From the IMG/VR virus record IMGVR_UViG_3300045988_122766: 40,283 nucleotides of DNA; one strand, 5' to 3'. How positions within the stretch are numbered: the stretch's first letter is position 1; the number at the start of each line of letters is the position of its first letter. The notes beneath the pieces were generated by a model. It saw only the letters and a list, made by a program, of their open reading frames with translations, had not been told where the DNA came from and searched no databases. Below are positions 1,617 through 40,007 of the stretch, in pieces. This DNA comes from a virus. The translations under genes and the position numbers were made by a program.

Positions 1617-1719
1617 ATTTTTAATATCCCTGTTTAGTGTAAATATATTTATCGTTTGTTTATCGCTTGATTATCGTTTGAAAATCGAACCATTTCTTTT
1701 TTAAATTGAAAATCAACAT

Positions 1720-1947
1720 CTATTCCACCTCGCTTAATATCGTATTTAGCCTGTGTAGAATTTGTGTATTCCTAATGTCTTGAATACGGCAAATATACCA
1801 TTCGCCATTATCACAAAGACCGTTGCCATATTTAATAAATTTGCCTCTTTTATCAGAATCTATACGCCCCATTCTAATCCGCCTTTTACCTGTTGTATAT
1901 GGGATAAAATATACTGGCTCGTTATCCAATAAATCGTTAGGTATCAT
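1720..1947 (-). CDS. Hypothetical protein
   Basis: 75-aa ORF whose start codon overlaps the stop of the next gene. Confidence 0.35.
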   Translation of the reverse strand: MIPNDLLDNEPVYFIPYTTGKRRIRMGRIDSDKRGKFIKYGNGLCDNGEWYICRIQDIRNTQILHRLNTILSEVE

Positions 1948-2357
1948 TATCCCACCTCGTTCAATAGTTCGGGAGTTTCGTAAATGTTACCGATTATTTC
2001 GTAGTCTTCGGGTTTGTAATCAAAGTTACATAAATAGTTTTTATATCCGCCGTCAAGTTCGGTAAAGCAAAAGGCGCTTACATCTTTATCGAATTCAACC
2101 TTGTAAAGGCAGCTTGTAAGTGAATCCGTATCCTCTGAAAAATATGTTTCTTTTAAAATATCGCCTTCAAAAATTAGATTGTTATTCTTATCTTTTTTGC
2201 CTGTGCATTGAATTAAGTTGTTTAAATCAAGTTTACACATTAAGGTTTCCATTTTATCTAGCGAAACAATTTCACCTCTTGAACGGGTAAAGTCTATGGC
2301 TGAACCGTCATATATTTTATTGTTGTTATTGTATCTAAACTTAAATCTATCTTGCAT
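1947..2357 (-). CDS. YopX-family phage protein
   Basis: 136 aa. The C-terminal IGNIYETPELLNE matches the conserved IGNIyenPELLe signature of the YopX family. Confidence 0.55.
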   Translation of the reverse strand: MQDRFKFRYNNNNKIYDGSAIDFTRSRGEIVSLDKMETLMCKLDLNNLIQCTGKKDKNNNLIFEGDILKETYFSEDTDSLTSCLYKVEFDKDVSAFCFTELDGGYKNYLCNFDYKPEDYEIIGNIYETPELLNEVG

Positions 2358-2375
2358 TATCTATTTCCTTTATCT

Positions 2376-2732
2376 TTAACTAATATCTATGTTCCATTTT
2401 GGGTCTAATATTCCTTTAAATTTTAAATAATACAAAATTAACCTTACACGGTGTATTGTATTGTATTTTAAATCAGAGCTTATACTAAGACATGTTTTTG
2501 AGTATATCGCATTTAAATGTGTCTTAACGGTGATTATTGATATTCCTAGATCGTCAGCAATTTGTTCGTTTGACAAACCGTGCGAAGCAAGTTCAACAAT
2601 TTGTTTTTCTCTGCTTGTGAAATCTTCATAATTTAATAATGGCTGTGTAACTGTTTTATTCTTATAAAGAATGTAAGTATTTAATAGTGTTTCTATATTT
2701 CTATATAATTCTTTTTCCATGAATTTTTCCAT
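2376..2732 (-). CDS. LuxR/GerE-type HTH transcriptional regulator (stand-alone HTH)
   Basis: 118 aa. TSREKQIVELASHGLSNEQIADDLGISIITVKTHLNAIYSK is a canonical LuxR-family C-terminal HTH. Confidence 0.65.
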   Translation of the reverse strand: MEKFMEKELYRNIETLLNTYILYKNKTVTQPLLNYEDFTSREKQIVELASHGLSNEQIADDLGISIITVKTHLNAIYSKTCLSISSDLKYNTIHRVRLILYYLKFKGILDPKWNIDIS

Positions 2733-3865
2733 TATTCACCACCCTTTGCTTTGTTAATGATGTCTAAAATTACAAACACTTGGCAATTTATATTACATTT
2801 TTGCGCATTTGCAAACACACAAGTTTCACAATTCCTTTGTTGGTAATTCTTAATCTCATCAAGTGCTTGTTTGTATTTTGAGTTTTCGGCATTTAGGTCT
2901 TTAAAAACTATGGCTCTTATTTTGTCAGACAATTTTCCATTGTTTCCAAAGGCTATTTCTCTTTTCAATTCTTCGCATTCTTGCTCCTTAGCTTGGAGTT
3001 CTTTTGCTTGTTCATCAATAATCAATTTTATTTGCTCGTGTAATTCTAAATAAGATAATCTTTCATCTTTATCAAGAATACCTTTTTTAATAAATTCAAT
3101 TCCGTATTTTGAATTATCATTTATAACAGCTTGAACTTTTTTAACTACGTCTGTTTCAATTCTATAAAGTTCATAATATGATTTCCATTTATCGCACTCT
3201 TGCTCTTTGGCTTTTCTTTTTGAACGTTCAAAATCTAAATCTGAACTTAGTCTTTTGTTTTCTTCCTTTAGTTGTGAAAATTGTTCAAATTCTTTTGCTG
3301 TAATTCGTTCTGGGTTTTCTACGTTATTTATAAACTCTGCAAAGTCTTTTTGTGTTGTGTAGTTTGGTTTTTCTATTCCTAATTTTTCTGCAAAATGATT
3401 AATAGTATTTTGCAAAAATGCAATTTCTTCTTTTGCTTGTGCAAGTTGTTTGAAATAACACCATTCAGAAGGGATATTTTTGCATTTAGTTTCCTTTTTA
3501 TTTATTGGGCTTGCGCAAATGCCATTGTTATAAAACTTGCATTCGATTCCGTCTATTGTTGTTTTGTTTGTGTTTTCGTCTACTTCTCTTATTATTTTTG
3601 GGAAGATGTTTCCAAGATGAGCCGTTAGAACTGTTGCTGTTAAATTTTTAATATTGTAATCAACACCTATTTTTAAAGAAATGGCATATTCATAACTGCC
3701 GTAATGTTTTGGGTTTAAATTATATCCAAAATTTTGAATAGTATGTATATTGTTAGATGTGTTGATAGATACGTTTTCGGGCGGTTGAACATCTACGGCA
3801 ATTTGCGATAGAATATTATATATGTCTTGTAGCACTTGTTTTTGTCGTGGTATATTATCTAACAT
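2732..3865 (-). CDS. Hypothetical coiled-coil protein with Cys clusters
   Basis: 377 aa with a long K/E-rich coiled-coil centre. Cys-rich segments include CKFYNNGICASPINKKETKCKN and C-terminal CETCVFANAQKCNINC. Confidence 0.5.
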   Translation of the reverse strand: MLDNIPRQKQVLQDIYNILSQIAVDVQPPENVSINTSNNIHTIQNFGYNLNPKHYGSYEYAISLKIGVDYNIKNLTATVLTAHLGNIFPKIIREVDENTNKTTIDGIECKFYNNGICASPINKKETKCKNIPSEWCYFKQLAQAKEEIAFLQNTINHFAEKLGIEKPNYTTQKDFAEFINNVENPERITAKEFEQFSQLKEENKRLSSDLDFERSKRKAKEQECDKWKSYYELYRIETDVVKKVQAVINDNSKYGIEFIKKGILDKDERLSYLELHEQIKLIIDEQAKELQAKEQECEELKREIAFGNNGKLSDKIRAIVFKDLNAENSKYKQALDEIKNYQQRNCETCVFANAQKCNINCQVFVILDIINKAKGGE

Positions 3866-4481
3866 TGTTTACTCCTGTTATCTGTTCAAGTATGTAACGT
3901 CCTAATTCTGGAATTACGCAATTTCTCAAGGCTTGTCTTGTATTTACACCTTTGAAAAGTTCTTTCGGTATGTCGTCATAACCGTATCTTTTTTTTAGTT
4001 TAGTGGGCTTATCTTTTATTTTCCAAAAATCCGCGTCTTGGAATTCTGCTGAAAGAATAAAATCTGAACTCCAAAAATAATGACGGCAAATAGAAAAGCT
4101 CGGCTGTATTAGTGGGGTGTAATATGGAATTACATTTTCTATTACCCATTTGATTTTTGCGTGATGTTGTAAAAGAATTATTTCTTCGTACAAAGACATT
4201 GACGGGTATTTAATTCTGTTTTGATATTTACCACCAAGTTGGTTTGTGAAATTTAGCCTGCTATGTGTTTGACAAGGTGGTGAACTCCAGATGAAATCGA
4301 ATTTATTAAAATTTTCTAGTAAATATTGATGTGCGTCACCAATAATAACTTTATCCTTCGGAAATTTGTAGCTATAAATTTTAGCAATTTTTTCATCTAT
4401 TTCGACGGCTGTAACTTCGTGATTTTCGCCCCATAAAGAACGATTACCGCCAATTCCGCAATAAAGATTAAGGATTTTCAT
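3855..4481 (-). CDS. DNA (cytosine-5)-methyltransferase, compact orphan
   Basis: Start taken at the internal ATG (MKILNLYCGIGG), which has an AAGGAAA ribosome-binding site. Motif I is LYCGIGG, motif IV is SSPPCQ, motif VI is WVIENV, and motif X is like QALRNCV. Only about 208 aa, with a very short target-recognition region. No restriction-endonuclease partner is evident. Confidence 0.75.
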   Translation of the reverse strand: MKILNLYCGIGGNRSLWGENHEVTAVEIDEKIAKIYSYKFPKDKVIIGDAHQYLLENFNKFDFIWSSPPCQTHSRLNFTNQLGGKYQNRIKYPSMSLYEEIILLQHHAKIKWVIENVIPYYTPLIQPSFSICRHYFWSSDFILSAEFQDADFWKIKDKPTKLKKRYGYDDIPKELFKGVNTRQALRNCVIPELGRYILEQITGVNNVR

Positions 4482-4945
4482 TTGCACGTTTCCTTTTCTT
4501 TTCTTTTCTTTTCTTTTCGGTCCTCGTTTATCATCATTGCAAATTTCAAAGGACAAAAACAATCTCTACAAATTTTTGTACCTCTTTGATAAAATGGATC
4601 ATCTACTAGAAGTCCGTAACAGTATGAATTGATTCTGTCACTACATTCGGGGTATTTATCACGATAGCGCTCAATTTTTAACTTTTTGTTTTTTATCGAA
4701 GTTTTGATATTATCTTGTAATGTTTTTAATTTATCAGTAACATAGCTACCTAAGCCAATAAACAATAAGGGGCAAAAAATACTTACAAGACAACAAAAAC
4801 TTAAAAGTGGGTTACTTGAGTTAGAATCTTTCTGTAAAAGCACAGCAGATACAACGATACTAAGCATGCTTAGAAAAACTGTAACGGTTAGGCAAATATT
4901 TTCTATTGGAAGTTTTATAAAGATTTTTGTTAGTGATTCTTTCAT
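4478..4945 (-). CDS. Hypothetical membrane protein (2 TM helices) with Cys-rich, K/E-rich C-terminus
   Basis: 155 aa. Hydrophobic helices near residues 20-40 and 48-68, followed by CxxC-type Cys pairs. Its stop overlaps the methyltransferase start (ATGA). Confidence 0.5.
   Translation of the reverse strand: MKESLTKIFIKLPIENICLTVTVFLSMLSIVVSAVLLQKDSNSSNPLLSFCCLVSIFCPLLFIGLGSYVTDKLKTLQDNIKTSIKNKKLKIERYRDKYPECSDRINSYCYGLLVDDPFYQRGTKICRDCFCPLKFAMMINEDRKEKKRKEKETCK
4494..4518. repeat. Pentanucleotide simple-sequence repeat (TTTTC)5, i.e. (GAAAA)5 on the coding strand
   Basis: Five perfect units plus one imperfect unit, 13-37 nt upstream of the methyltransferase ATG and inside the 3' end of the upstream membrane-protein gene. 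Confidence 0.9.
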
Positions 4946-4969
4946 TTGTTCAATCTTTCATTTGTTCAA
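4938..4969. repeat. 16-bp tandem duplication TCTTTCATTTGTTCAA x2 covering a start codon
   Basis: Two perfect copies. On the minus strand each contains ATGAAAGA, so the initiation region of the 4478..4945 gene is duplicated. Confidence 0.85.
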
Positions 4970-5242
4970 TCTTTTTTTTTGTTGCTTTACACAAAAGGTA
5001 CTAGATATTATTTATCCGTGCGCTGTACCTTTTGTGTCGGGCTGGTTAATTAGTGGTCTTAGTGTCACAACCCAGCTATGCCGTACCTAATGCGCCAAGC
5101 GTCTGATATAGGCTTTATTATGTTGTCTTTCCAACTGTCATTAGTTCTTTGTCTGTGTTAGTGCTAGTGAACTAAGACTTTCCCCCACAATCGGTAATCT
5201 CGGCTCTCGTGGGTTCAGAGTACGCCGTACACGCTTTATTAA

Positions 5243-5933: not shown

Positions 5934-6017
5934 TTTTTGTACCTCTTGATTTTGCTTTTTTGTGATTTTGATATATCGAATGATAAACATTCGATATATC
6001 GTTTTATTATCTTTTGA

Positions 6018-6845: not shown

Positions 6846-6846
6846 T

Positions 6847-7968: not shown

Positions 7969-7971
7969 TTT

Positions 7972-9589: not shown

Positions 9590-9779
9590 CTGAACATTTG
9601 GGGTTGTGTCATTTTTTTAAGTCCTCAATTTTGCAATTCTAATTTACAAAATCATTCGTTTGGTGTATTCTATTTTTCAAGAACATTTGATAAACTGATT
9701 GTAAATCTATGATAATACTTTTGTCAATCTATACTAAAATAAGTATTTACATAAGTTTACAATTATCGGGCAAAAACAC
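9590..9779. promoter_or_regulatory. Divergent genetic-switch intergenic region with repeated 8-mer TTGTAAAT/ATTTACAA and a candidate sigma70 promoter
   Basis: Copies of ATTTACAA at 9642..9649, TTGTAAAT at 9699..9706, ATTTACAT at 9745..9752 and TTTACAAT at 9756..9763. TTGATA (9687..9692), an 18-nt spacer and GATAAT (9711..9716) point towards the xre gene at 9780. Confidence 0.45.
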
Positions 9780-10079
9780 ATGACTACTCAAGGCGAACGA
9801 TTAAAAAATATCAGAAGAAAATTAGGGCTTTCTCAAGCTGAATTAGGCGAAAAACTTGGATTTTCTAAACAATATCTATCAAACATTGAGGCTGATAGAA
9901 ATTTAATGAATAATGACAAGTTAGTCAAGCTGTTAGTTGACTTTAATGTAAACATCAATTATCTTCTTGCGGGTGTTGGTGAAATGTTCAACACTCCGAC
10001 ATCTAATGAAGACTTTAGAAATTCTGAAATGATTAGCCTTATTGATGAAGCGCTTAAACGACACGGTCTAATCAAATAA
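9780..10079 (+). CDS. XRE-family HTH transcriptional regulator (Cro/CI-like)
   Basis: 99 aa. LKNIRRKLGLSQAELGEKLGFSKQYLSNIE is a canonical XRE HTH. No S24 peptidase domain. Confidence 0.8.
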   Translation: MTTQGERLKNIRRKLGLSQAELGEKLGFSKQYLSNIEADRNLMNNDKLVKLLVDFNVNINYLLAGVGEMFNTPTSNEDFRNSEMISLIDEALKRHGLIK

Positions 10080-10741: not shown

Positions 10742-10758
10742 TATCTGAAGGAATAAAA

Positions 10759-11436: not shown

Positions 11437-11468
11437 AAAAGAAGTGAAAAATTTTTCACTTCTTTTTT
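11437..11468 (+). terminator. Rho-independent terminator
   Basis: Perfect palindrome GAAGTGAAAAA/TTTTTCACTTC (11441..11462) followed by TTTTTT. Confidence 0.8.
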
Positions 11469-11538
11469 ATGCAAAAAATAAAATTTAAAAAAAATCGAAC
11501 GGCTGAAACACAAACTACATTTATTTTTTTAATCGGTC

Positions 11539-11579
11539 GATAATCGGACGATAAACAATCGGTAAAACGTCCGATTATC
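11539..11579. repeat. GATAATC-N4-GATAAAC phased repeat plus the distal inverted copy GATTATC, within a 12-bp inverted repeat
   Basis: CGATAATCGGACG...CGTCCGATTATC is a perfect 12-bp inverted repeat. GATAATC at 11539 and GATAAAC at 11550 are 11 bp apart. AATCGG occurs three times nearby. Confidence 0.8.
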
Positions 11580-11580
11580 C

Positions 11581-11610
11581 ATAAGAGAAGATAAGAGAAG
11601 ATAAGAGAAG
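11581..11610. repeat. Tandem decamer (ATAAGAGAAG)x3
   Basis: Three perfect tandem copies, followed by the CCCCCAAAGGGGG hairpin at 11624..11636. Confidence 0.9.
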
Positions 11611-11896
11611 AATACCCCCATATCCCCCAAAGGGGGAGAGTGTAAAAAATTAAAAATCACGACAAAAACGGCGCATAATTTCAATGTGTCAAAAAGCCCT
11701 TAGAAAGGGGTATACAAAAAACGCTCTCTCGGAAATTCCATTATAGAAGGGAAAGTAACCCGTGCGCAAAAATTTCAAATTTCAAACACGTCAAATTACA
11801 TCAAAAACGAAAGCAAACACACGTTACAACTGCACTACAGGCAATAACACCTTGACGGCTGAAATGCGCATTTAATAATTTGTTACAAAACACTAG

Positions 11897-11956: not shown

Positions 11957-11985
11957 TTGACAGAGTTTTAAAAATGGTACATAAT
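11957..11985 (+). promoter_or_regulatory. Near-consensus sigma70 promoter TTGACA-17-CATAAT
   Basis: TTGACA at 11957..11962, a 17-nt spacer, and CATAAT at 11980..11985. It would drive an approximately 200-nt leader to the gene at 12192. The leader contains the long-range pairing CTGTGCCTA(12093..12101)/TAGGCACAG(12163..12171, i.e. 3-29 nt upstream of the ATG), plus short hairpins. Confidence 0.55.
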
Positions 11986-12191
11986 GAGATTGTGCTTTGC
12001 ACGGACGCTCTAGTAAACGAAAACCAAGTAGATACGCTTGGAGCTGATACCTTTGAACGAAGTCGACGTGCGTTAAGAGTACAGAATAACTGTGCCTAAA
12101 CGAAGTAAATAACAAATAAATAGCAAGAAATTCTGAAATAAGATTTTACCATAAGGTTACCACTAGGCACAGTAAGTAGGATAGTTAGAAT

Positions 12192-12575
12192 ATGTTTACC
12201 CATTGCCACACAACATTTCGGACAAAAGACGTATATTTTTTGTTTGATAATAAAGACTTTATGAACCGTCATATCTTTATCGCTATGTGTCCAAAGTGTA
12301 AACAAATATTCACTAAGTTGGTAGAAACAAGAAAGGCAGATAACAAAAGATTTGAAAAAACTCTCATCGGCAATAAAGCAGAAAAGATGTTGAATTCATT
12401 ACGCAATGAAGTAGACATAAAGCAATCAGATTTAGTTCAGAAAAGGGCTAAAATGCACGAACAAAAAGGGATTGTTTACGGTGAGAATATCGAATACAAG
12501 TGCGGTGATGTTGCAAGATATGCGCATTCGTTTATAAACAACAAACGCAAGCTAGTCGGCATTGACCCACAATAA
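12192..12575 (+). CDS. Hypothetical Cys/His-containing protein upstream of terminase (possible Zn-binding regulator or HNH-like)
   Basis: 127 aa. The N-terminal HCH...N..H...CPKC pattern is present. AGGAT ribosome-binding site. Confidence 0.4.
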   Translation: MFTHCHTTFRTKDVYFLFDNKDFMNRHIFIAMCPKCKQIFTKLVETRKADNKRFEKTLIGNKAEKMLNSLRNEVDIKQSDLVQKRAKMHEQKGIVYGENIEYKCGDVARYAHSFINNKRKLVGIDPQ

Positions 12576-12805
12576 AAAAAGCTATTGTAATAGTTATCCA
12601 ACCCACGTAGGCAACGTGTTGTAGACCAAATATTTTTTCCAATTATCAAGCGTGGGTTTTTCTTTAAAGTTTAATGGCTTAGACCGACACCCCCTTTCTT
12701 TTTAAAGTAACAAATTGTCCTAGTAAGTTAATGACGTATTTAGTTCGGTCTAAGTTGACAAAATTTATTTCTCTCTCTTTTCTCATAAAATATTAATTAC
12801 AGTGT

Positions 12806-13410: not shown

Positions 13411-14753
13411 TGCAAACTCATTATGAACTAGAACTACCTCAAATTCTAAACATACCGCCTAAACTTTATCCGATATTCACAAAGTTTAAACAACACCGAT
13501 TTATTCTATTACACGGCGGTCGTGGCGGTGCTAAATCTCACAGTGTTGCAAGATTACTACTTTACATTGCGGAACATTATAAAGTACGCATATGTTGCGG
13601 TCGTGAAACTCAAAACACCATTGAAGACTCCGTTTACAAAATCTTTATGGGAGTTATCAGAGATAATAATCTGAACTTCTACGAAAGAAATAATAAAATC
13701 TACCACAGGCTTACGGGTTCTGAAATAGTATTCAGAGGATTTAGACAATCGGGTAACGTAAACATTAAAGGTTTGGAAGACTTCGACATTCTTTGGATAG
13801 ACGAAGCAGAAGCAATTACGGAAGAAACATTAGATATCATTATTCCAACAATCCGTAAAGCTGGTTCTAAACTAATATTCACAATGAACCGCAAGCTAAG
13901 ACGTGACCCTGTTTATACGGAAATGGTTAACAAAGAAGAAAATTGTTTAATCATCAAAATCAACTATTACGAAAACCCTTATTGTTCAGCTGAACTAATC
14001 GAAGAAGCTGAAAAAATGAAGGTTAAAAATCCTAAAAAGTACAAGCACGTTTACGAAGGTGAACCAGAGGAAGATTCCGAGTTGATGTTATTCAGCGCTG
14101 ACAAGCTGGATTTAATCAAAAAAGTTAAGATTTACCCAGAACGCATTGAACCATTTAGAAGTATGGCTGTTGATTTATCTGGCGCTGGTGGTGACTTCTG
14201 CGAATGTTCAATTGTAGACCAAGTAATGTCAAGCAAGTACAAAGTGTCAGACATTATCGAATGGCAGATTGCAGATACAGACGTAACTGTCGGTAAAATC
14301 ATCAATCTTTACAAGATGTTTGAACCCGATATCTTAACCTTAGACGCTGACGGTATGGGATATCCGATTTATTGTTCAGTATCAAAAGCCGTTGAAAATT
14401 GCATTGCCTTTCACGGTGCAGGTAAATCCAATCGTGAAAACTGTGCAAATCAAAGGGCAGACGGTTACATAACTCTGCAAGAGTACGTAGATAATCAGTT
14501 TATAATCATTCCGCAAGATAAATGCAGAAATCAATTAGAAACGATTGAAAAAAGATATCAAACGAACGGTGGCAAGATTGTCATTATCCCTAAAAAGGAA
14601 TATCGAGACAAATACGGCGAGTCACCCGATACTGCGGACAGCGTAATGATGAACATTTACTCAATCAATTACAACAAATTTATGAGTAGAAAACAATCTT
14701 ACGGTTTTGAGAATTATGAATATTCTATGGAAGAATACAGCGTTTATGATTAA
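13410..14753 (+). CDS. terL: Terminase large subunit
   Basis: 447 aa. Walker A motif LLHGGRGGAKS, plus a downstream Walker B-like DILWIDEAE. The C-terminal half is nuclease-sized. Confidence 0.88.
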   Translation: MQTHYELELPQILNIPPKLYPIFTKFKQHRFILLHGGRGGAKSHSVARLLLYIAEHYKVRICCGRETQNTIEDSVYKIFMGVIRDNNLNFYERNNKIYHRLTGSEIVFRGFRQSGNVNIKGLEDFDILWIDEAEAITEETLDIIIPTIRKAGSKLIFTMNRKLRRDPVYTEMVNKEENCLIIKINYYENPYCSAELIEEAEKMKVKNPKKYKHVYEGEPEEDSELMLFSADKLDLIKKVKIYPERIEPFRSMAVDLSGAGGDFCECSIVDQVMSSKYKVSDIIEWQIADTDVTVGKIINLYKMFEPDILTLDADGMGYPIYCSVSKAVENCIAFHGAGKSNRENCANQRADGYITLQEYVDNQFIIIPQDKCRNQLETIEKRYQTNGGKIVIIPKKEYRDKYGESPDTADSVMMNIYSINYNKFMSRKQSYGFENYEYSMEEYSVYD

Positions 14754-14793: not shown

Positions 14794-15009
14794 ATGTGTA
14801 TCGGTTCAGGCGGTGGCGGTTCTACTAAAGTTGTTCAAGCGCCCGTAGAAACAATTGCTACACCAACAATAGCAAATGCAAACGTACAAAAGGCTGGCAG
14901 TGACGCACGTCGACAAGCGTCGGCAGCTGCAAATCAAAATATAAAAACATCTGCAAACGGTCTTAATGACTTTGCAAATACAAATAAAAAGAAATTATTA
15001 GGTGAATAA
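14794..15009 (+). CDS. Hypothetical small protein
   Basis: 71-aa Gly/Ala-rich ORF between the large terminase and the portal. AGAAAGGAAAC ribosome-binding site. Confidence 0.45.
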   Translation: MCIGSGGGGSTKVVQAPVETIATPTIANANVQKAGSDARRQASAAANQNIKTSANGLNDFANTNKKKLLGE

Positions 15010-17733: not shown

Positions 17734-18729
17734 ATGAGTTTAATTGGAACAGATTATGTGAATTTAGTTGATTCAATGAAGGAACAAACTGACAAAGACC
17801 TTATTGAATTATTAGCTGAAACAAACGACATTATTAAGGACGCACACTATCAACCTTGTAATGCAGCTAAAGGCGGTACTACAAACCACAATGTTACTGT
17901 TAGAAATGGTTTACCAAAAGCAACTTGGGTTAAATACTATGAAGGGGTAAAACCTTCTAAAGGTACTACAACCGTTGTAACTGTTTCAACAGGTATGTTG
18001 AAAGCGTACAGCGAAATTGATGAGGATTTAGTATTAGACAATCCTAACCCTGCCAAATTCAGACTTAACCAAGCTAAGGCTCACTTGGAAGCAATGAATC
18101 AAGAAATGCAAACTCAAATTTTCTACGGACAAAAAAAACAGGGCGATCAATTCGACGGTATTGCTAATTTGTACTCTAGCATTTCTGATGATAAGTCAAA
18201 AATTGGTTACAACGTAATCGACGCTGGCGGTACAACAGGTAACTTGACATCAATCTACTTAGTATGTTGGCGTGATACAGGTGTAAGTTTGATTTACCCA
18301 GAAAACGGCAAAGCTGGCTTAGAACACGTTGACAACGGAGTTATTAAAGCAGAAGCGCCAAACGGTGGTAAATTTAATGTTTACTCTGACGATTACAAAT
18401 GGAAACTTGGTGTTGCTGTTGAAGATTGGAGATGTTCTGGACGTATTTGCAACATTCCTGTTGACGAAGACGCGCGCAAAGATTTAGGCATTGACCTTGC
18501 TAAATTAATGCGTCACTTAGTTCGCCGAGTTAAAAAACACGCTAAAGGCGGTAAGTTATTCTTCTATATGAATTCGGATATTATCGACGCATTTGAAGAC
18601 CAAATTCTAGATAAGAACAATATCCAATTTACAATGGGTGAATACTTAGGCGAAGAAGTAGAAATGTTTAAGAAAATCCCATTAAGAGAAATTGACCAGA
18701 TTTCATTGGAAGAAAAGAAAGTAGCTTAA
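17734..18729 (+). CDS. Major capsid protein, putative
   Basis: 331 aa, after the scaffold gene, with the strong ribosome-binding site GGAAAGGAAA. Confidence 0.55.
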   Translation: MSLIGTDYVNLVDSMKEQTDKDLIELLAETNDIIKDAHYQPCNAAKGGTTNHNVTVRNGLPKATWVKYYEGVKPSKGTTTVVTVSTGMLKAYSEIDEDLVLDNPNPAKFRLNQAKAHLEAMNQEMQTQIFYGQKKQGDQFDGIANLYSSISDDKSKIGYNVIDAGGTTGNLTSIYLVCWRDTGVSLIYPENGKAGLEHVDNGVIKAEAPNGGKFNVYSDDYKWKLGVAVEDWRCSGRICNIPVDEDARKDLGIDLAKLMRHLVRRVKKHAKGGKLFFYMNSDIIDAFEDQILDKNNIQFTMGEYLGEEVEMFKKIPLREIDQISLEEKKVA

Positions 18730-18829: not shown

Positions 18830-19231
18830 ATGTTATTTGATGAACAATCAATCTTATCGGATAATCAACCAATTACAGCAAACGCTGTATCAACTAACAC
18901 TCTTTACGTAGGCAAAAATGACGCGTCAAGAGAAGATGTACCTTTTAAGGGTGTAGTTACAGAAGCATTTAACAACTTGACTAAATTACAAGTTTTGCTT
19001 GAAACTTGCGCAAATGGTACTTTTGCAACTGACAGCACTACAACAATTTACGATAGAATTTTTGAACTTGCAGAGTTGAAACAAGGTGCAGATATCGCCC
19101 CTCGTTACGTACCTAAAGGATTTAAAGATTACGTTAGAGCTAAATACGTTATCACGGGTACAGCGCCTACAACAGGTAAAGTTAAAATGGGTGTTGTTGA
19201 TTGTCACGACGACGATTGGGCTGATGTATAA
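18830..19231 (+). CDS. Hypothetical head-associated protein
   Basis: 133-aa ORF after the capsid gene, followed by a hairpin. Confidence 0.4.
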   Translation: MLFDEQSILSDNQPITANAVSTNTLYVGKNDASREDVPFKGVVTEAFNNLTKLQVLLETCANGTFATDSTTTIYDRIFELAELKQGADIAPRYVPKGFKDYVRAKYVITGTAPTTGKVKMGVVDCHDDDWADV

Positions 19232-19252
19232 AACATCTAACTATCATAATAA

Positions 19253-19285
19253 AAACGGTGGGCTTTTGCTCACCGTTTGCTTATC
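19253..19285 (+). terminator. Terminator-like hairpin
   Basis: AAACGGTGGGC-TTTT-GCTCACCGTTT with one G.U pair, then a T-rich stretch. Confidence 0.5.
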
Positions 19286-19311
19286 AAACGATTAACAAAC
19301 GATAAACAAAA
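19281..19311. repeat. Phased 11-bp repeat cluster (CTTATC / GATTAAC / GATAAAC)
   Basis: TTATCAAACGATTAACAAACGATAAACAAAA. The CGAT units at 19289 and 19300 are 11 bp apart. Confidence 0.8.
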
Positions 19312-19350
19312 TTACATTAATGCTCATTAAGTGATTATTAATGTAATTTT
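19308..19350. promoter_or_regulatory. 13-14-bp perfect inverted repeat AAATTACATTAAT-N15-ATTAATGTAATTT
   Basis: Seen directly. It lies immediately upstream of the tail tubular A ribosome-binding site. A long stem-loop at the RNA level. Confidence 0.8.
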
Positions 19351-23188: not shown

Positions 23189-25369
23189 ATGGTACGTATA
23201 GATAAAGCTCAAAGAGAAGTTAATACTCAAGCGATACCACATCAATACGTGGACGGTGGTAATACAAGAGGTGCATTTGGTGAAAATGTTGCGCTTGCAA
23301 CTCAAAAAGCTGGTGAGGATTTAGAAGACATTGGTATTATGCTTGATAAAATTCAAGCACAGAATGAACGTGCAAATGTTGTTAAGCTACAAAATGATGT
23401 TTACCAACAGTGGGAAGAACCTAATCTTTATTCTAAAGACGGTTATTTTAACCAATTTGGTCGTAATGCAGCTGGCAAGTCTGCAGAAGTATTAGCCAAT
23501 TATGACGCTTGGGTTGAACAACGTAAAAAAGAATTAGGTATAAATTCTAAACGTGCAAATGTTGTTTTTGCTGAAATGAACAACAGAAACCGTGAGAGAA
23601 TTTCTAGGGCGATTCTTGCACACGATTTGCAACAAACGCAAGAAACAGAAAAAACAGAACTTAGCCAGCTTTGCAAAAACTATGACACACAGGGTGTTTG
23701 GGATAGAAACAGTGATGAACAGTTTGAATATAATCTATCAGAAAAGATTAAAGCTGTTAAAAATTATGGTGTCGTTGCAAACCTTGATAAAACGCAAATT
23801 AAAGCATTGATAGATAAAAGTAATGACGAATATCTTAATGGTGTACTGACAGCCTTACTTACTGACGGAAATTATCAACGCGCAAGTGTAATTTTAGAAA
23901 ATAATAAAAGTTTATTGACTCCAGATAATTATATTAAATTCACGAAAGAAATTAAAAACTTTTCTGATGAGGATTTTGCAAGACAATTTGCTACTGATTT
24001 AATAAACAAGGGTTATACAGTAGAACAAGCACAAAATCTTATTGATCAAGAAACGAACTTTGAGATGTGGCAAAAGAAAAATAATCTTTATCATAACTTA
24101 TATAATACAAAAAAACACAATGAAGAAACTGTTCAAAATGAGATTTTGACAAACGAATTTAATAACCTATTATCTGGTAAATATGACATTGCTACATATA
24201 CACCGCCAAATAGTTTAGAACCTATAAACCAACAAAAATTAATTAAGATGAAACAAGATTTACTTGAAGGTGGCGGAATTAAAACAGACCCTAGAGTTTA
24301 TACTGGTTTCTCTATGGCTATGCTTACTAACGCAGAAGAGTTTTCAAAAATTAATTTTGACTTATATCAAAATGTACTAGAACCTAAAGATATTTTAAAA
24401 TTCAAACAAGCACAGGAAAGAATTAGACAACATGGTTATAGTTCAGTTACCCCTGATGATGAATTTGTATTGAATGCAGCTAAACAATATGGCTGGTTCA
24501 CAGATAAAAATGCTATGGCAAGTGCAATTGAAGCGTCAATTCAGACAGAAGAAGCTAGATATGGCAAGCAATACAGTAAAGATGATTTAAGACAAAGAGG
24601 TGAAAAATACGCTAGTTACTACGGCTTAAGAGGTAATAAAAACGAACGTAGTGCTCTAGATGTTATTAATGACAATATGTCAAAAGAGTTTATGGTTCGT
24701 GTTCAACAAGGTTTAAAGGCATACGAAAATAAACACGGCATAAATTCAATGACACCTGAACAATTTAGAACTATGGTTAATAGAATTGCGGGCGAAACAA
24801 AAACTAAAGGTGTACAACTTAAGTATGAAACTTTAAGAAAAACCAATATTCAATCTCAAATAAAAGAGTCTCCTAATTTAATTAATTTTAGACATTCTGA
24901 AATTCCAGATATTGAAAAAGCATTAGGTTTTAAACTTAATATCTCATCAACAACAAGAGAGCCTAACGGAAGTTACAAATCAAAACATTCAGAAGGCTTG
25001 GCAATGGATATAGGCTACACATTAGCTAATGGTCGTAAGATGTCAACGCAACAAAAGCTAACACTTGTAGGAAGAACCTTAGCGTCTGATAAAGTTGCTA
25101 AAATTGCAATTTCATCAGCAGACCCCGACGGCAAAATGATTATGCAAGCATACGGCAAAAGATTTGCGTCAAAAATTCAAGATATGAACCAAAAGGACGC
25201 TAACGGTAAAACTCGAGACCAAAATTTAAACACAAATCATACAAATCATTTACACATCTCTTTTAAAACAGGGCAACAAACCCCTCAAATAAAAGAAGGT
25301 ACGATTATTAAAAACAAACAATCAGGCGAAAGAATGATATTGAAAGGTGGAATATGGCAAGCAATTTAA
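23189..25369 (+). CDS. Internal virion protein with C-terminal M15/LAS-family zinc peptidase (cell-wall hydrolase) domain
   Basis: 726 aa. SKHSEGLAMDIG (24980..25015) matches the SxHxxGxAxD motif of VanY/M15 peptidases. HLH follows 80 residues later (25247..25255). Position and size (against 747 aa) resemble T7 gp15. Confidence 0.5.
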   Translation: MVRIDKAQREVNTQAIPHQYVDGGNTRGAFGENVALATQKAGEDLEDIGIMLDKIQAQNERANVVKLQNDVYQQWEEPNLYSKDGYFNQFGRNAAGKSAEVLANYDAWVEQRKKELGINSKRANVVFAEMNNRNRERISRAILAHDLQQTQETEKTELSQLCKNYDTQGVWDRNSDEQFEYNLSEKIKAVKNYGVVANLDKTQIKALIDKSNDEYLNGVLTALLTDGNYQRASVILENNKSLLTPDNYIKFTKEIKNFSDEDFARQFATDLINKGYTVEQAQNLIDQETNFEMWQKKNNLYHNLYNTKKHNEETVQNEILTNEFNNLLSGKYDIATYTPPNSLEPINQQKLIKMKQDLLEGGGIKTDPRVYTGFSMAMLTNAEEFSKINFDLYQNVLEPKDILKFKQAQERIRQHGYSSVTPDDEFVLNAAKQYGWFTDKNAMASAIEASIQTEEARYGKQYSKDDLRQRGEKYASYYGLRGNKNERSALDVINDNMSKEFMVRVQQGLKAYENKHGINSMTPEQFRTMVNRIAGETKTKGVQLKYETLRKTNIQSQIKESPNLINFRHSEIPDIEKALGFKLNISSTTREPNGSYKSKHSEGLAMDIGYTLANGRKMSTQQKLTLVGRTLASDKVAKIAISSADPDGKMIMQAYGKRFASKIQDMNQKDANGKTRDQNLNTNHTNHLHISFKTGQQTPQIKEGTIIKNKQSGERMILKGGIWQAI

Positions 25370-35779: not shown

Positions 35780-38439
35780 TGGCGGTATATTTAGGCGATA
35801 AAATAATTTATTCTGGTGGTGGTTCTGGCGGTTTGACCGTTGATTTACCAGCTGATATAACACAAGGTTATGAAACTGTTACTAACAATCCTGCAAGACC
35901 TTTATATAGTGATTGGGGTACATTACAAGGTGAAGTAGATTCTTGTATAAATCAATACAGTAGTGAAAACTTTTTCGTAAATATCTTGCAAGCCTTAAAC
36001 TTATGGCAACAAGATATGAACTTTGCTTCTGCGTATGGTTTTATTGTTGCAAACGATTGCGATAGTATCACTTTCTCTATTGGTGACTATTACGTTACAT
36101 CAACAGGTGTAGGTGGTGCAAAAAGAACAGTAAACGAAGACGGTACAATTTCTGTAAAAACAGAAGCTACACTTACTAATGTTAAGGCAGGTACACGTAT
36201 CATCACAGCCTATCAAGACATTGAGCAATTTGATATTAAAACATTAAAATTTCCCACAAACGTAAGCTACTATTATTTTAACTGCAACCTTGTTTATAAT
36301 GAAAATATGTTTACTTATGGTAGTTTTATCTCTAGTTATAGTGACCTTAGAGGTTTTGAAATTGCTGAAGGTAAGAATATTATATTTGACAGCTCGACAG
36401 ATTACAGTACCAAAACATTTACTATCTTTACAAACTTCCCACGATTAGAGTCACTACCTAAGAAATTAGACCTTTCGGGATTTACAGGAACAATAAATTT
36501 TGCTAATGATTGTCATATCTTAAAGCAATTGCCAGAAGTTTTAAACATTCCAAATATTTGCGGAATTGACGGATTTTTAAAGAATTCGGGTTGTCCAGAA
36601 AATTTCCCTTACACACTAAATCTTAGCGGTCTAACTAAGTGTAATGATATCCTATATAACACAAAAGGTATAAAAAGGCTTACACACCCGATTACAATTA
36701 GTGCTAATTGTAACATTGTTAATTTACTAAGAAATACTGTTGGTATTGATACAATTGAAAAAATTTCTTTAACTTTAAACAATACGGTCAATGGTTCAAA
36801 CACTACTAACTACACTTTAAATAACTGTCTTGACTCTTTGCAGGCGCAAGAGATAAAAGAATTAGCAATTAAAAGTAATGTAACAACGTCAACATTTGAA
36901 GGTTTAAAAGACGGTTATATCATCTGTCAAAAAATTGGAACATTTACTGCTGAAGCTGAACATTTAGGTTCTTGCTTAACACGTTTACCTCGTTGTTTAA
37001 AAATCGACAAAGTTATTTTGAACACAAAAAATTCAACAAGTACCCAATATGTCGCTTTACCTTCTGTTGAGTTTGGTGATATTGGCGAGGTTGAAATCAC
37101 ATCAGAAGGTGATTTATATTTCACTCTTGGTAAAATTGGTAACGCAACAGCAAAATATAACAACATTGACAGTATCACATTAACCGCAAGTGGCGATATT
37201 GTTTCTAATGATAAAATTAATCAGATTACCACTCTAAAAAGCCTTACTGCAACAACAACTAACGGTAAATGCGATTTGAACTATGGCGCAAAAAATGTTA
37301 GCAATATGACAATTAACGCAACAGGCGATTGTAATATCGGCACAAATACAATGACATTCGGGAATGTTAGCGTGACGACTTCTGGCAAAGTTGGCGGTGG
37401 TGGTAGCGCCTACAAATGCGGTAATGTCAATATCTCTTGTGGTTCTGTCGACGGATTGCTTTCAAGCGGTACTCTTGTTTCTGTTGGCGATATTTCTATT
37501 ACAAGCACAGGCGATATTAAAGCTGTATTAAAAAATACTGGACAATTAATTAAAGCAGGTACAATTACGGTTACATCTGGCACATTAATTAATGAACTTA
37601 TTTCTGCTAGCAAAGTTTTTGAAATGGGTGAGGTTATTCTTACTGCGCCAAGTGTAGTAAGTTCTCTATACAATCTTAGAGGTTTGCAAAGTTTAAAAGT
37701 TACAATTAATGCAAACACCAAAATATCTAGTGTTTTATATATTGCTGAAAAAGTTTTGTTTATGGAAGATTTAGATATTACCGCAACTGCGTTAAGCCTT
37801 GCTGAAAATGGTAACATTGGTTTTAATTGTTCCGCTAAAAACTTGAATATTAATTTGCACGTTGAGTCAACAGCATGTAAAATAGATGTCTTTGACGGCG
37901 ATTTGACAACAATGTTAAATGTTACAGGGCAAATTAAAATTAAGGCTAAAGGTGATTGTAAGATATTTACAGGCACTCAGAGACTTGAAAACTTTAACTG
38001 CGATTTAGATATAGATATCGTTGGACAACTTGGTTTATTTTATGGCACTTCAAACAGTCCAGAACTAAATAAATTAAAAACATTAAATCTTGGAAATAAA
38101 ATCAAAGCAACAGGCGGTTTGAGAATTGGAAACCCTTATTCAATCGTAACGCTTAATGGTGATTTTTCTAACTTAACAGCAAATGACCAATATAATACAT
38201 TTTTCGACAAAATGTACAATCTTGTTAATGCAAATGTTATTCTATCTTCAACCGCAAGCATAGATTGCTTCAAAGACTCAACACTATTAAGTCTTGCAAG
38301 TTTAAATTATATAGCAAATAATGCCCCAACCTTAACGACATCAAAGGCTATTGCATTTTCTAAGGCAGTATATGACCAAAATGCGGATTGGTACAGCACA
38401 CTTGTATCAAAAGGTTGGACAGTAAATAAAACAAATTAG
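35779..38439 (+). CDS. Tail fibre/spike distal receptor-binding protein with beta-helix-like repeats
   Basis: 886 aa. Its start overlaps the stop of the fibre N-terminal gene. Recurring [ST]x[GS]GD[ILC] motifs (TSEGDLYF, TASGDIVS, NATGDCNIG, TSTGDIKA, KAKGDCKIF), and Gly-rich and Asn/Thr-rich content. Confidence 0.5.
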   Translation: MAVYLGDKIIYSGGGSGGLTVDLPADITQGYETVTNNPARPLYSDWGTLQGEVDSCINQYSSENFFVNILQALNLWQQDMNFASAYGFIVANDCDSITFSIGDYYVTSTGVGGAKRTVNEDGTISVKTEATLTNVKAGTRIITAYQDIEQFDIKTLKFPTNVSYYYFNCNLVYNENMFTYGSFISSYSDLRGFEIAEGKNIIFDSSTDYSTKTFTIFTNFPRLESLPKKLDLSGFTGTINFANDCHILKQLPEVLNIPNICGIDGFLKNSGCPENFPYTLNLSGLTKCNDILYNTKGIKRLTHPITISANCNIVNLLRNTVGIDTIEKISLTLNNTVNGSNTTNYTLNNCLDSLQAQEIKELAIKSNVTTSTFEGLKDGYIICQKIGTFTAEAEHLGSCLTRLPRCLKIDKVILNTKNSTSTQYVALPSVEFGDIGEVEITSEGDLYFTLGKIGNATAKYNNIDSITLTASGDIVSNDKINQITTLKSLTATTTNGKCDLNYGAKNVSNMTINATGDCNIGTNTMTFGNVSVTTSGKVGGGGSAYKCGNVNISCGSVDGLLSSGTLVSVGDISITSTGDIKAVLKNTGQLIKAGTITVTSGTLINELISASKVFEMGEVILTAPSVVSSLYNLRGLQSLKVTINANTKISSVLYIAEKVLFMEDLDITATALSLAENGNIGFNCSAKNLNINLHVESTACKIDVFDGDLTTMLNVTGQIKIKAKGDCKIFTGTQRLENFNCDLDIDIVGQLGLFYGTSNSPELNKLKTLNLGNKIKATGGLRIGNPYSIVTLNGDFSNLTANDQYNTFFDKMYNLVNANVILSSTASIDCFKDSTLLSLASLNYIANNAPTLTTSKAIAFSKAVYDQNADWYSTLVSKGWTVNKTN

Positions 38440-38450
38440 AAAGGAAAACA

Positions 38451-38711
38451 ATGAAAAAGATTTTACCCTTATTAGCATTGTGCATTTTTTGCACGTTGCC
38501 GACACTAGCAGACGAATTAAAAGAGGTTGAGCCTGCAAATGAGATAATTAATGCTCAAGACAATAAAATTGTCGTAGTGGTTCAGAAACAACCTCTAAAT
38601 GAACGCTCTAATCAAAAGGTCATTATCAAGCGAAATTGGTTAGGTGTTTATATTCAAATTAATGGAAAAGTTAAAGTGAATCCGCTAACTAGCACTTACG
38701 AGGTACAATAG
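38451..38711 (+). CDS. Small secreted protein (signal peptide)
   Basis: 86 aa. MKKILPLLALCIFCTLPTLA-DE is a type-I signal peptide. It does not have a convincing lipobox. Confidence 0.45.
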   Translation: MKKILPLLALCIFCTLPTLADELKEVEPANEIINAQDNKIVVVVQKQPLNERSNQKVIIKRNWLGVYIQINGKVKVNPLTSTYEVQ

Positions 38712-39224
38712 ATGTTACAAGTTCCTGAAGTTGCCCCTAGTATGTTACAAATTTATGGCGAAAAAAAACTTGTCATAACTTTTGATTGCAAAAATCCTGA
38801 CGAATATCTTGCTGATGTTTCGCTTATTGGATTATCAAAAGCCGAGAAAAAGTTAGCAAAGAAAAAGCCTTTTGTTGTTACAAAAGGCTTTAAGGTACTT
38901 ATCGACTTCGAAGACGATCATTATTTTTTTGTTATTCCCAATGGGTATCGTTGGAATGGTGCGAATGTTCCGCCATTCGCTTGGGTTCTAATCGGACAAA
39001 GAACTGACCCAAGATTTAAGCTCGCTAGTTGTGTTCATGATTATATGTGCGAACACCACAAAGTTATAGGCTACAATCGTTATTTATCTACGCTTGTTTT
39101 TGTTACTTGTTGTCAACATTTTGGCGACTTCCCTGCGTGGAAATTATTTGCAATGAAACATAGTATTGACAATTATCAAAAGGTATTTGGTAAAGATGAG
39201 GAAGGTAAAAGGTGGAAAGTATGA
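38712..39224 (+). CDS. Hypothetical protein in the lysis module (possibly DUF1353-like)
   Basis: 170 aa with a conserved-looking GYRWNGANVP...HDYMC segment. Confidence 0.35.
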   Translation: MLQVPEVAPSMLQIYGEKKLVITFDCKNPDEYLADVSLIGLSKAEKKLAKKKPFVVTKGFKVLIDFEDDHYFFVIPNGYRWNGANVPPFAWVLIGQRTDPRFKLASCVHDYMCEHHKVIGYNRYLSTLVFVTCCQHFGDFPAWKLFAMKHSIDNYQKVFGKDEEGKRWKV

Positions 39225-39496
39225 ACATTGAACAAGCTACGCTAGTGGCTATTGTTGCTTTAATTATAACTGTCGCAGGGCAATTGTTGTATATCGCTTA
39301 TATGTTTGGGCGCTTTGCAACAAAACTAGAGAATTTAGAAAAGCGACAAGAGAAGCATAATAACGTAATTGAACGACAATTTAAAACTGAAAGCGACGTA
39401 AACACTTTATTTGAAAAAGTAAAAGTGAGCAATCATAGATTACAAGATTTGGAAAATGCAGTTATGGGTAGCCATAATAATAATGAGAGGTGGTAA
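39212..39496 (+). CDS. Holin or i-spanin-like membrane protein
   Basis: 94 aa. Single N-terminal TM (ATLVAIVALIITVAGQLLYIAYMFG) followed by a coiled-coil. Confidence 0.4.
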   Translation: MESMNIEQATLVAIVALIITVAGQLLYIAYMFGRFATKLENLEKRQEKHNNVIERQFKTESDVNTLFEKVKVSNHRLQDLENAVMGSHNNNERW

Positions 39497-39498
39497 AT

Positions 39499-39981
39499 AT
39501 GGCAAAAGTTAAGTACATTATAGGACATTGGACAGGTGCAAGCTCATACAACGTGAGCGAATACATCAAGAATTGTTATCAACTAATTATCACGAGAAAT
39601 GGCGACGCAATAAAAGGTTATAAAGGTGTTGGCGAAACTGCAAGCACCGCAGGTATGAATTCTATTACTTATAATATTTCTTGCGCGGGTGATAATTTGA
39701 GCGCACCGCTAACAAGAAAACAATGTGAACGATTTTTCTACGAGTGCGCATTTATGCTTAAACATTATAATTTAACAGTTGATAAGTTTTATACGCACGC
39801 TGAAATAGGTAATATGTATAAGAATGGTACAATTACAAAATTATTGCCAATGAATAAATGGTTAAAGGATAATGAAGGCAAAATCGACTTAACAAAATTG
39901 CCGTATGACTTTAAAGGTAAATCTCATGGTGATTTTATCCGTTCAAAAATTAAATGGTATTATAACGAACTGTTTAAATAG
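39499..39981 (+). CDS. Endolysin, N-acetylmuramoyl-L-alanine amidase (T7 lysozyme-like, Amidase_2)
   Basis: Start at ATG 39499, after the GAGAGGTGG ribosome-binding site. IIGHWTGAS, YQLIITRNGDAIKGYKG and ITYNISCAGDN parallel T7 lysozyme HCSAT, YHFIIKRDGTVEAG and SIGVCLVGGID. Confidence 0.6.
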   Translation: MAKVKYIIGHWTGASSYNVSEYIKNCYQLIITRNGDAIKGYKGVGETASTAGMNSITYNISCAGDNLSAPLTRKQCERFFYECAFMLKHYNLTVDKFYTHAEIGNMYKNGTITKLLPMNKWLKDNEGKIDLTKLPYDFKGKSHGDFIRSKIKWYYNELFK

Positions 39982-40007
39982 TATCGTTTGATTATCGAAC
40001 GATAAAC
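39979..40007. repeat. Phased repeat cluster (TAGTATC) GATTATC-N4-GATAAAC after the last late gene
   Basis: TAGTATCGTTTGATTATCGAACGATAAACAAA. TTATCGAACGATAA is nearly palindromic. Confidence 0.8.

Follow-up and report, generated by a model that had tools for sequence, protein, structure and literature searches.

Repressors of cluster A mycobacteriophages bind the early promoter and, in addition, more than 20 short intergenic stoperators, at which they halt elongation (PMC9283540). The start-associated sequences (SAS) of cluster K mycobacteriophages, with their extended form (ESAS), are dispersed in another manner: the SAS is a 13-bp asymmetric word containing the Shine-Dalgarno (SD) sequence, located 3–7 bp from the start codon of 10–19 genes in the non-structural half of the genome only, and its function is unknown (PMC3203893). 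The PeSL cassettes of T4-type phages, in turn, combine an early promoter and a stem-loop terminator within ca. 50–70 bp (PMC2839356). Here, arrays of GATWAWC heptads phased at 11 bp were analysed in the phage genome IMGVR_UViG_3300045988_122766 of IMG/VR, the whole 40,283-nucleotide stretch of which is called the window, and are tentatively interpreted as binding sites of a repressor from the immunity region of the phage.

Phased arrays are otherwise familiar from small dimeric DNA-binding proteins, i.e. ParR on the 11-bp parC iterons, the Cox boxes of P2, SinR heptamers, and restriction-modification (R-M) controller proteins on tandem C-boxes. To our knowledge, nothing is known of gene control in phages of the Melainabacteria (Gastranaerophilales), a common, uncultured gut lineage. 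The phage of the window is a temperate epsilon15/BPP-1-like podovirus of this lineage. Its genome was taken as a closed assembly of ca. 40.2 kb because identical 54 bases occur at both ends, and the GC percentage of the window is 30–37. The portal protein had at most 30% identity to known phages, including Vibrio podoviruses, BPP-1 and SPN1S, and the named source organisms of its homologues were Candidatus Gastranaerophilales or Melainabacteria. Furthermore, an identical CI protein was found inside prophages integrated in the chromosomes of Melainabacteria metagenome-assembled genomes (MAGs), and the prophage was common in samples from the human gut. Genomes of the portal clade at 45% identity numbered at least in the hundreds.

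Phased heptad arrays and their conservation

Strict GATWAWC pairs at exactly 11 bp were counted nine times in the window, against a mean of 0.01 and a maximum of 1 in 500 dinucleotide shuffles, which served as the null for all counts of this word, and between 5 and 21 bp no other spacing yielded a pair. On both strands together the word occurred at 30 sites, when 20.3±4.5 were obtained after shuffling. Thus, the enrichment over an AT-rich background that a preceding sequence-only reading had anticipated is clear for the phased pairs and only mild for the word alone. Heptads outside the arrays were not enriched (11 observed, ca. 20 expected), and therefore the functional object is the phased array, not the word. 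A position weight matrix made from the 11-bp units and scored in phase gave 25–30 bits for the arrays, with a null maximum of 20, and recovered all the listed loci together with one further array, X.

The sequence-only reading had listed seven loci, designated L1 to L7 in the following (labels with three digits, e.g. L061 and L326, refer to compared loci or contigs). All seven were found again on rereading of the sequence, with ATCG at 1651, 1662, 1673 and 1684 in L1, the ribosome-binding site (RBS) AGAAAGGAAA adjoining L4 and L6, L5 positioned after a hairpin at 19245–19278, and L7 positioned after the endolysin stop. The list lacked the eighth dispersed array, X, and a degenerate array in the immunity switch (Table 1). 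The spacing, which had been given as exactly 11 bp, applies to most steps, with the exceptions of L2 (12+11 bp) and one 12-bp step in L3. Likewise, most of the arrays are situated at the joints of gene blocks, as was expected of marks of module boundaries.

Each unit consists of YGATWAWC followed by three variable bases, and the heptads and spacers follow a 7-4-7 pattern. Units always occur in phased groups of two to four and may be direct or inverted relative to each other. The reverse complement of GATWATC is GATWATC again, when GATAAAC and GATTAAC are asymmetric and mostly constitute the final unit towards the downstream gene. Of the eight dispersed arrays, seven lie between genes, where the space does not suffice for a promoter, and no Rfam family matched at or near the arrays.

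Table 1. Arrays, regulatory genes and other mapped features of the window, with positions in nucleotides.
Feature	Position	Strand	Description
Array L1	1647–1686	-	Four units GATTTTC, GATAATC, GATAAAC, GATAAAT; 25–70 bp upstream of the xis-like gene
Array L2	5970–6022		GATATATC-gaat-GATAAAC-attc-GATATATC (5970–6000) and two degenerate units; between two leftward early genes
Array L3	11539–11579	+	Units GATAATC, GATAAAC, GGTAAAAC, GATTATC; one 12-bp step
Array L4	14748–14776	+	GATTAAC-gctc-GATAATC-aaac-GATTAAC
Array L5	19279–19307	+	(GCTTATC)-aaac-GATTAAC-aaac-GATAAAC; between post-capsid terminator hairpin and a second conserved hairpin
Array X (eighth)	29882–29914	+	GATTATC-aaat-GATAATC-aagaggt-GATTAAAC; in frame within the gene of the 3024-aa polyvalent ejection protein
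Array L6	34438–34466	+	GATAATC-attt-GATTATC-gaat-GATAAAC; after the giant gene, last unit 1 nt from RBS AGAAAGGAAA
Array L7	39979–40007	+	(TATC)-gttt-GATTATC-gaac-GATAAAC; after the endolysin stop, before terminator 40040–40070
Degenerate four-heptad array (switch)	9689–9729		GATAAAC 9689, GTAAATC 9701, GATAATA 9711, GTCAATC 9723; spacing 12/10/12
Leftward early promoter	9727–9698	-	Consensus match 11/12
Rightward promoter over the leftward one	9687–9716	+	Consensus match 10/12
CI-like XRE repressor, 99 aa	9780–10079	+	Pfam HTH_19/HTH_3/Phage_CI_repr
Second XRE protein (XRE70), 70 aa	10307–10519	+	PHROG transcriptional regulator
Integrase	210–1292	+	
Leftward early operon	9587 down to 1287	-	Final gene is the 109-aa xis-like gene
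xis-like gene, 109 aa	1616–1287	-	
Two membrane or secreted 'moron' genes			After the second XRE gene, before the late operon
Rightward late operon			TerS, TerL, T7-type portal, epsilon15 gp7-type capsid, nozzle protein, 3024-aa polyvalent ejection protein, fibre genes, amidase, in this order
AGTGCGGTAAA x2	40146–40166 and 185–207		On both attP arms
ATAAAAGAAA x3.6	40077–40112		

Tandem Repeats Finder reported L1 with a period of 11 and 3.0 copies. L2 is a three-unit palindrome, the asymmetric unit of which is antisense to the genes; in some relatives it forms a perfect 31-bp palindrome with GATAATC at the centre, and in L326 it is missing together with its flanking genes. L3 lies between the moron terminator (11437–11466) and a 10-bp tandem repeat, (ATAAGAGAAG)x3, ca. 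400 bp upstream of the late promoter, and has three alleles in the population, in which the units are constant and the spacers altered. In L4 the first unit overlaps the stop codon of TerL, and a single nucleotide separates the last unit from the RBS of a 71-aa gene. L7 is located ca. 220 bp from the attP core, with the terminator between them, and neither L3 nor L7 has a gene downstream.

Next to L5, a long AT-rich hairpin (19309–19350, z = -5.4 in the window) was identified between the post-capsid terminator and the next gene. A post-capsid AT-rich hairpin is present in all lineages with differing sequences (L001 ca. 15900, L061 14250–14300, L064 8510–8560), with compensatory changes in close relatives, and may represent an RNase III-type processing site.

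The expectation that the motif is conserved in related phages held true. The array-bearing cluster comprised the IMG/VR contigs 174211 and 151406, L066, L323–L330, and L336–L344, ca. 15 distinct contigs from different samples, with portal proteins 87–100% and CI proteins 96–100% identical to those of the window. L4, L5, X, L6 and L7 were present in every contig of the cluster that covered them, X being kept in 11 other contigs. Between the two main sublineages, for which substitutions were tabulated by hand, the invariant heptad positions (G, A, T, A, C) were changed at one of 65 sites, and the W positions at five of 26 sites, each time between A and T, when the spacers were changed at 10 of 40 sites (invariant positions against spacers, Fisher's test p = 2.3e-4). 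The 11-bp phase was kept throughout, and the outer units had decayed more than the two units nearest to the downstream gene. In the aligned sequences, this conservation reads as the signature of base-specific recognition on duplex DNA, and not of mere homology or fold.

Outside the cluster no arrays were found in relatives at 67%, 42% or 22% portal identity. In the 67% relatives (L061/L062 and L064) the TerL stop directly abuts the RBS of the next gene, and arrays were also absent from L331 and L332, more distant relatives with CI identities of 62% and 56%. No 11-bp pairs at all were present in eight prophage loci of the same host group, which belong to unrelated phages of the sipho- and myovirus type, and ca. 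42 kb of host DNA beside five integrated copies was devoid of arrays. The triple-heptad pattern was present in 58 stretches of IMG/VR, with relatives only among the contigs of sample 3300045988, and scans of metagenomes and genomes returned, among the matches listed, chance matches only, which had no genes in common with the window. The arrays are thus confined to one narrow homoimmune phage cluster, and this lineage restriction suggests that their partner is encoded by the phage and not by the host. Purifying selection on specific bases, the retained phase and the absence outside the lineage are all in line with the proposal of the sequence-only reading that the clusters constitute one family of cis elements for a protein encoded by the phage lineage.

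Two further occurrences of similar heptads were recorded in the scans. An unrelated 64-kb contig of the same sample with 49% GC (L050, IMGVR_UViG_3300045988_138687) contains GATAAAC-TTTT three times at 11-bp spacing together with an inverted GTTTATC (3194–3290). In addition, many of the triple-heptad matches listed (L193–L267) were in MAGs of Bacteroidales and Paludibacteraceae, several per genome (e.g. five contigs of RUG14682), which hints at an unrelated repeat family.

The immunity switch and a candidate repressor

The switch region between the divergent early genes holds a 22-bp direct repeat, which can be read as four heptads, none with more than one mismatch, that together cover both divergent early promoters. 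In a genome-wide test for four units at spacings of 10–12 bp, only L1 and the switch passed (null 0.00 in 100 shuffles); under strict 11/12 spacing, the switch array did not pass the four-unit test. The switch was identical in the three genomes aligned. In the distant relative L332, the immunity switch contains a (GAAT)n/(ATTC)n run, which is found again beside a putative late promoter (9858–9870 and 11700–11716).

Among the proteins suggested as binders by the sequence-only reading, those of the XRE family remain the best candidates, with the CI-like protein leading and XRE70 as the alternative. CI was 96–100% identical in every array-bearing genome, and XRE70 was present in all of them. The nearest solved relatives of CI are an Xre-family regulator similar to ImmR of ICEBs1, SinR, and the 434 and P22 C2 repressors, and those of XRE70 are the R-M controller proteins C.AhdI and C.BclI. 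Proteins of the SinR, 434 and P22 C2 type and controller proteins bind as dimers to half-sites separated by about one helical turn and occupy adjacent sites cooperatively, which fits the 7-4-7 unit pair. For the phased-array proteins, homology was examined within the XRE fold only.

The LuxR/GerE protein (2376–2732), also suggested earlier, is excluded as the binder. Its gene is missing from 174211, 151406, L323, L325, L326, L327 and L329, all of which bear arrays, and homologues with 65–87% identity in array-less phages (L067–L070 and L311–L314) had zero 11-bp pairs nearby. Eight other genes, i.e. w1720 (75-aa ORF), the C5 methylase (3855), w2732, w6018, the ribbon-helix-helix-looking w6847, w7052, w10759 and w34458, are like GerE excluded as obligatory partners, since one or more of the array-bearing genomes lack each of them. 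The Cys protein at 12192 (gp127) is a possible candidate and is not favoured, as homologues of 22–50% identity exist in array-less lineages. Genes present in every array-bearing genome were int, the xis-like gene, YopX, w4478, w5243, w5559, w7413, w7669, the replication initiator, w9038, w9309, CI, XRE70, gp127, TerS and the virion genes. For the xis-like protein, w6847, gp127, w1720 and w9309, searches against Pfam, PHROG and PDB sequences gave no usable match, and k-mers shared between the window and GerE-carrying phages, or between switch regions and the rest of each locus, were AT-rich noise only.

GerE(LuxR) and YopX (1947–2732 in the window) form a mobile two-gene module, which was also present in these unrelated prophages of the sipho- and myovirus type. 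There, the pair is located at the end of the early region, directly before the terminase genes, which is the usual place of a late-gene regulator.

The integrase and the xis-like protein are unlikely binders, since separate phased repeats exist at attP, and a 56% homologue of the xis-like protein in L061 has no array upstream. The attP core was placed at ca. 40226/1 from the break of homology in integrated copies and adjoins a 23-nt hairpin (8–30). The AGTGCGGTAAA repeats are probably arm-type sites of the integrase, and the ATAAAAGAAA repeats may be excisionase sites. The arrays do not qualify as Xis or Int arm-type sites of attP, the arms of which bear these different repeats, with L7 ca. 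220 bp away.

From the arrays, their placement and the gene content of the cluster we infer, tentatively and as the best-supported reading, that an XRE-type repressor encoded in the immunity region, most likely the CI-like 99-aa protein or else XRE70, uses the arrays as operators and as roadblocks or insulators, and that its binding blocks transcription. According to this proposal, one sequence-specific, oligomerising protein from the conserved phage core would bind the arrays on duplex DNA, with the two to four units of each array on one face of the helix. Heptads over the divergent early promoters would act as the operator. At the block joints, the protein bound in the lysogen would form a roadblock or insulator and prevent read-through into the next block; the joints served would be those before xis, inside the early operon, at the boundary of the moron genes and the late operon, downstream of the terminase and of the head genes, within the giant gene and at its end, and behind the lysis genes.

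Several points weigh against the repressor proposal. There are only eight dispersed arrays, when the mycobacteriophage L5 has over 20 single sites. The same late operon operates without arrays in the relatives at 67% portal identity, so that the function must be dispensable or otherwise supplied there. Lytic expression, too, would suffer from a block only 1 nt away from an RBS, unless induction removed the protein. The asymmetric units, with L2 antisense, were co-directional with transcription in 10 of 11 cases, which is not significant when A-richness of the coding strand alone predicts ca. 73%. In the switch, every heptad falls on a -35 or -10 hexamer of one or the other of the two promoters, which face each other, and the spacing is 12/10/12 instead of 11, and the resemblance to the heptad may in part be due to promoter sequence. 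Finally, CI never separates from the arrays in the genomes compared, yet the same is true of ca. 14 other core genes.

Alternative explanations of the arrays

That the arrays are primarily recombination linkers or portable cassette boundaries, i.e. short shared sequences for module exchange with protein binding as a secondary matter, is considered unlikely. The comparison with 26 related loci resulted in 26 breakpoint clusters, three of which were within 40 bp of an array (binomial p = 0.023 relative to a uniform null); breakpoints were observed near L1 in ten loci, near X in six, and near L6 in three. At L1 the junction is inside the array, where in relatives the final unit alone is homologous and the upstream part is exchanged for another module, which brings its own phased units of the GATGAAC type (GTTCATC/AATCATC/GATGAAC). 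Downstream of L6, the first gene is present, absent or replaced, when the array and the RBS are unchanged. At X, homology ends 12 bp downstream of the array, inside the gene, and all four combinations of upstream and downstream alleles were found. In addition, L2 of the window resembles an L3 allele of the relatives (79.5% over 44 nt), which suggests exchange between arrays, and a precedent exists in the PeSL cassettes (PMC2839356).

However, homology-driven exchange leaves unexplained the five fixed bases in every 11, the drifting spacers, and the W positions that alternate between A and T only. No junction was found at L3, L4, L5 or L7, the arrays are with 18–30 bp short for homologous exchange, and both breakpoints and arrays favour gene boundaries, due to which the p-value overstates the link. 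The coincidence with junctions reads as a consequence of conserved short sequences at block joints and not as the primary function, because homology alone does not account for the base-specific constraint and four arrays are without a junction. As short conserved sequences repeated at block joints, the arrays nevertheless seem to provide or to mark the crossovers by which modules are exchanged, alongside the proposed repressor binding.

The giant polyvalent protein (25354–34428) contains ADP-ribosyltransferase (ART), nucleotidyltransferase and peptidase-like domains. Its length varied from 2898 to 3063 aa across the cluster, with breakpoints at ca. 28873, 29927 and 30472 of the window (L336, L339, L342). 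In L339 and L342 (6087–9950), the fibre region is exchanged for a 564-aa gene, a 225-aa gene, and a 235-aa tyrosine recombinase on the opposite strand, a replacement which may be an invertible host-range cassette. Beyond ca. 11800, the host flanks in L336–L341 varied by contig and carried flagellin genes, a ribosomal protein S9/L13 operon, or a ROK kinase and DNA polymerase III delta, which may reflect several integration sites or else rearrangements in the hosts.

Late-gene control sites, that is, promoters or activator sites for block-wise late transcription, represent a quite improbable explanation, and the earlier suggestions of a late activator or of phage-specific promoters fit the arrays poorly. 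Arrays do precede the first gene of several late blocks co-directionally, L5 directly follows a terminator, where re-initiation is plausible, and GATAAT resembles a -10 hexamer. The consensus scan, however, found no sigma-70-like promoter and no -10/-35 match at L3–L7, and with the last unit 1 nt from the RBS in L4 and L6, an activator site would be downstream of, or on, the core promoter. L3 and L7 lack a gene to be activated, GerE, the only protein resembling sigma region 4, is missing from several array-bearing genomes, and no phage RNA polymerase was found among the proteins of the window. Moreover, a near-consensus late promoter with a conserved leader already exists at 11957.

This late promoter (TTGACA-17-CATAAT) is followed by a leader of ca. 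200 nt, which is conserved in L066 and L061. The leader (11957–12192) contains an invariant long-range helix (GCACGGAC...GTCGACGTGC) with a few compensatory pairs and no Rfam match. After it come the 127-aa Cys protein, two terminators (12806 and 12879), and terS, a layout that resembles an antitermination or attenuation unit of a late operon.

An equally slight chance is given to elements acting at the RNA level, by which the transcribed repeats would be processing or stability sites or translational operators, comparable to the RNase III sites of T7 or to the SAS of cluster K (PMC3203893). L4 and L6, and X in its pattern, are joined to an SD sequence, and hairpins centred on the middle unit had z-scores from -3 to -6.7 in L2, L3, L6 and L7. 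On the other hand, these hairpins are not preserved, as pairs are lost with no compensating change in alleles b and c of L3 and in L7 of contig 174211, and L1, L4 and L5 fold no better than shuffles (z from -1.0 to -1.6, the z-score of L5 deriving from a separate downstream hairpin). The antisense unit of L2 and the absence of a gene after L3 and L7 likewise count against RNA-level elements, and units phased strictly at 11 bp, some direct and some inverted, are characteristic of recognition on the duplex. In favour of RNA-level elements, the distant relative L332 has another dispersed element with a hairpin in the same late-operon gaps: it is ca. 100 bp long, forms the hairpin CTCCTCTCC...GGAGAGGG, and is located just upstream of each RBS (12160–12674, 14489–14621, 14832–14994, 17790–17899, 18938–19059).

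The chance of replication or packaging sites is slighter still. In this case the units would be iterons for the 363-aa replication initiator or sites of the small terminase, with L3 as the main ori or pac and the remaining arrays as secondary sites. Each lineage has its own repeat cluster with A-rich tandem repeats at the spot equivalent to L3, upstream of the late region, and this cluster could be an ori or pac site. The repeats there are GATWAWC in the window (11500–11640), AACTTAAGTT in L061 (6900–7040), and of the TGCATTGCA or TGCA type in L064 (1320–1440), L331 (3283–3440) and L332 (11290–11440), often with a G+C hairpin. Between L061 and L064, TerL and portal are 85–88% identical, yet TerS (32%), gp127 (30%) and the repeats differ, and no iterons were found inside the rep gene. 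In the other lineages, however, the repeat is confined to this one spot, when the window has it in eight to nine places, and the arrays are under selection in late-operon gaps and at the switch, where copies of ori or pac have no obvious use. Nor does TerS similarity group with repeat type; for TerS and gp127 alike, no clear grouping with the repeat at this spot was obtained. Contigs that start beside the tandem repeats were considered as physical genome ends and rejected, as assembly breaks at repeats explain them.

Binding by a host factor (Fur-like, IHF-like or nucleoid-associated) is very improbable. A sequence resemblance is all that speaks for it: the units are similar to the GATAAT hexamers of Fur boxes and to TCGATAAATT, the nucleation motif of H-NS, and two arrays show similarity to WATCAANNNNTTR (AATCAAACGATTA and TATCAAACGATTA in L4 and L5, CGATAAATA in L1, TCGATATATC in L2). 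However, no arrays were found in the ca. 42 kb of host flank, the eight unrelated prophage loci or the 67% relatives, the spacing is 7-4-7 and not 7-1-7 as in Fur-family boxes, and H-NS is not known outside Proteobacteria.

Comparison with described systems

Like the SAS and ESAS of cluster K (PMC3203893), the arrays are dispersed, cluster-specific, located upstream of start codons, kept before different genes, and associated with hairpins that lack compensatory support. Their units, however, are upstream of the SD sequence, contact with an RBS is limited to two to three arrays, two others have no gene behind them, and the late, structural operon contains most of them. With the PeSL cassettes (PMC2839356), the arrays share the character of short, repeated intergenic elements beside swapped or inserted genes at mosaic junctions. 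Genes inserted, deleted or replaced next to the element were found at L1, X and L6, and not at L3, L4, L5 or L7, and in place of promoter and terminator the arrays consist of phased heptads with no promoter match and no conserved hairpin. The arrays are thus neither SAS nor PeSL.

In the arrays of ParR, Cox, SinR and R-M controller proteins, short units about one turn apart, in direct or inverted order, are bound cooperatively on one face of the helix, as is proposed for the arrays of the window. Those systems have one or two loci each (centromere, promoter or attP), when the arrays of the window are dispersed through the operons.

In their proposed function, the arrays come closest to the operators and stoperators of cluster A (L5 gp71 and the TipsytheTRex repressor), where one motif occurs at early promoters and in short intergenic gaps of the early and late operons, as it may in the window, the switch heptads of which are degenerate and coincide with promoter hexamers. 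In both systems the motif is specific to an immunity group, and in cluster A initiation is blocked at the promoter and elongation elsewhere, as would be the case for the window. The L5 sites are single asymmetric 13-mers, over 20 in number and orientation-dependent, which are bound by a monomer with two domains of the helix-turn-helix (HTH) type. In contrast, the window has near-palindromic 7-bp units in arrays of two to four at one-turn spacing, in eight to nine places and with no significant orientation bias. The candidate protein is a small XRE protein of 99 aa related to SinR, 434 and P22 C2, when repressors of the gp71 type have an HTH and a second 'stoperator' domain, and both host and phage are different (Melainabacteria; epsilon15/BPP-1-like podovirus). 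The arrays would accordingly work like a stoperator system and fail its site architecture.

If the repressor proposal is true, prophage silencing by dispersed intergenic roadblocks is no longer peculiar to cluster A mycobacteriophages, and the solution was reached independently, with phased palindromic heptads replacing single asymmetric 13-mers. A more far-reaching version, which is unlikely as a whole, is stoperator-type immunity that has evolved convergently in phages other than actinobacteriophages: by polymerising on the phased heptads, a small XRE repressor would silence the switch and insulate the blocks, and the arrays, one of them in frame in the giant gene, would double as portable junctions for module swaps between homoimmune phages. 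The arrays mark exact recombination points of the cluster genomes, one inside a 9-kb gene, and in this respect offer a test case for the regulatory 'linker' idea of modular phage evolution.

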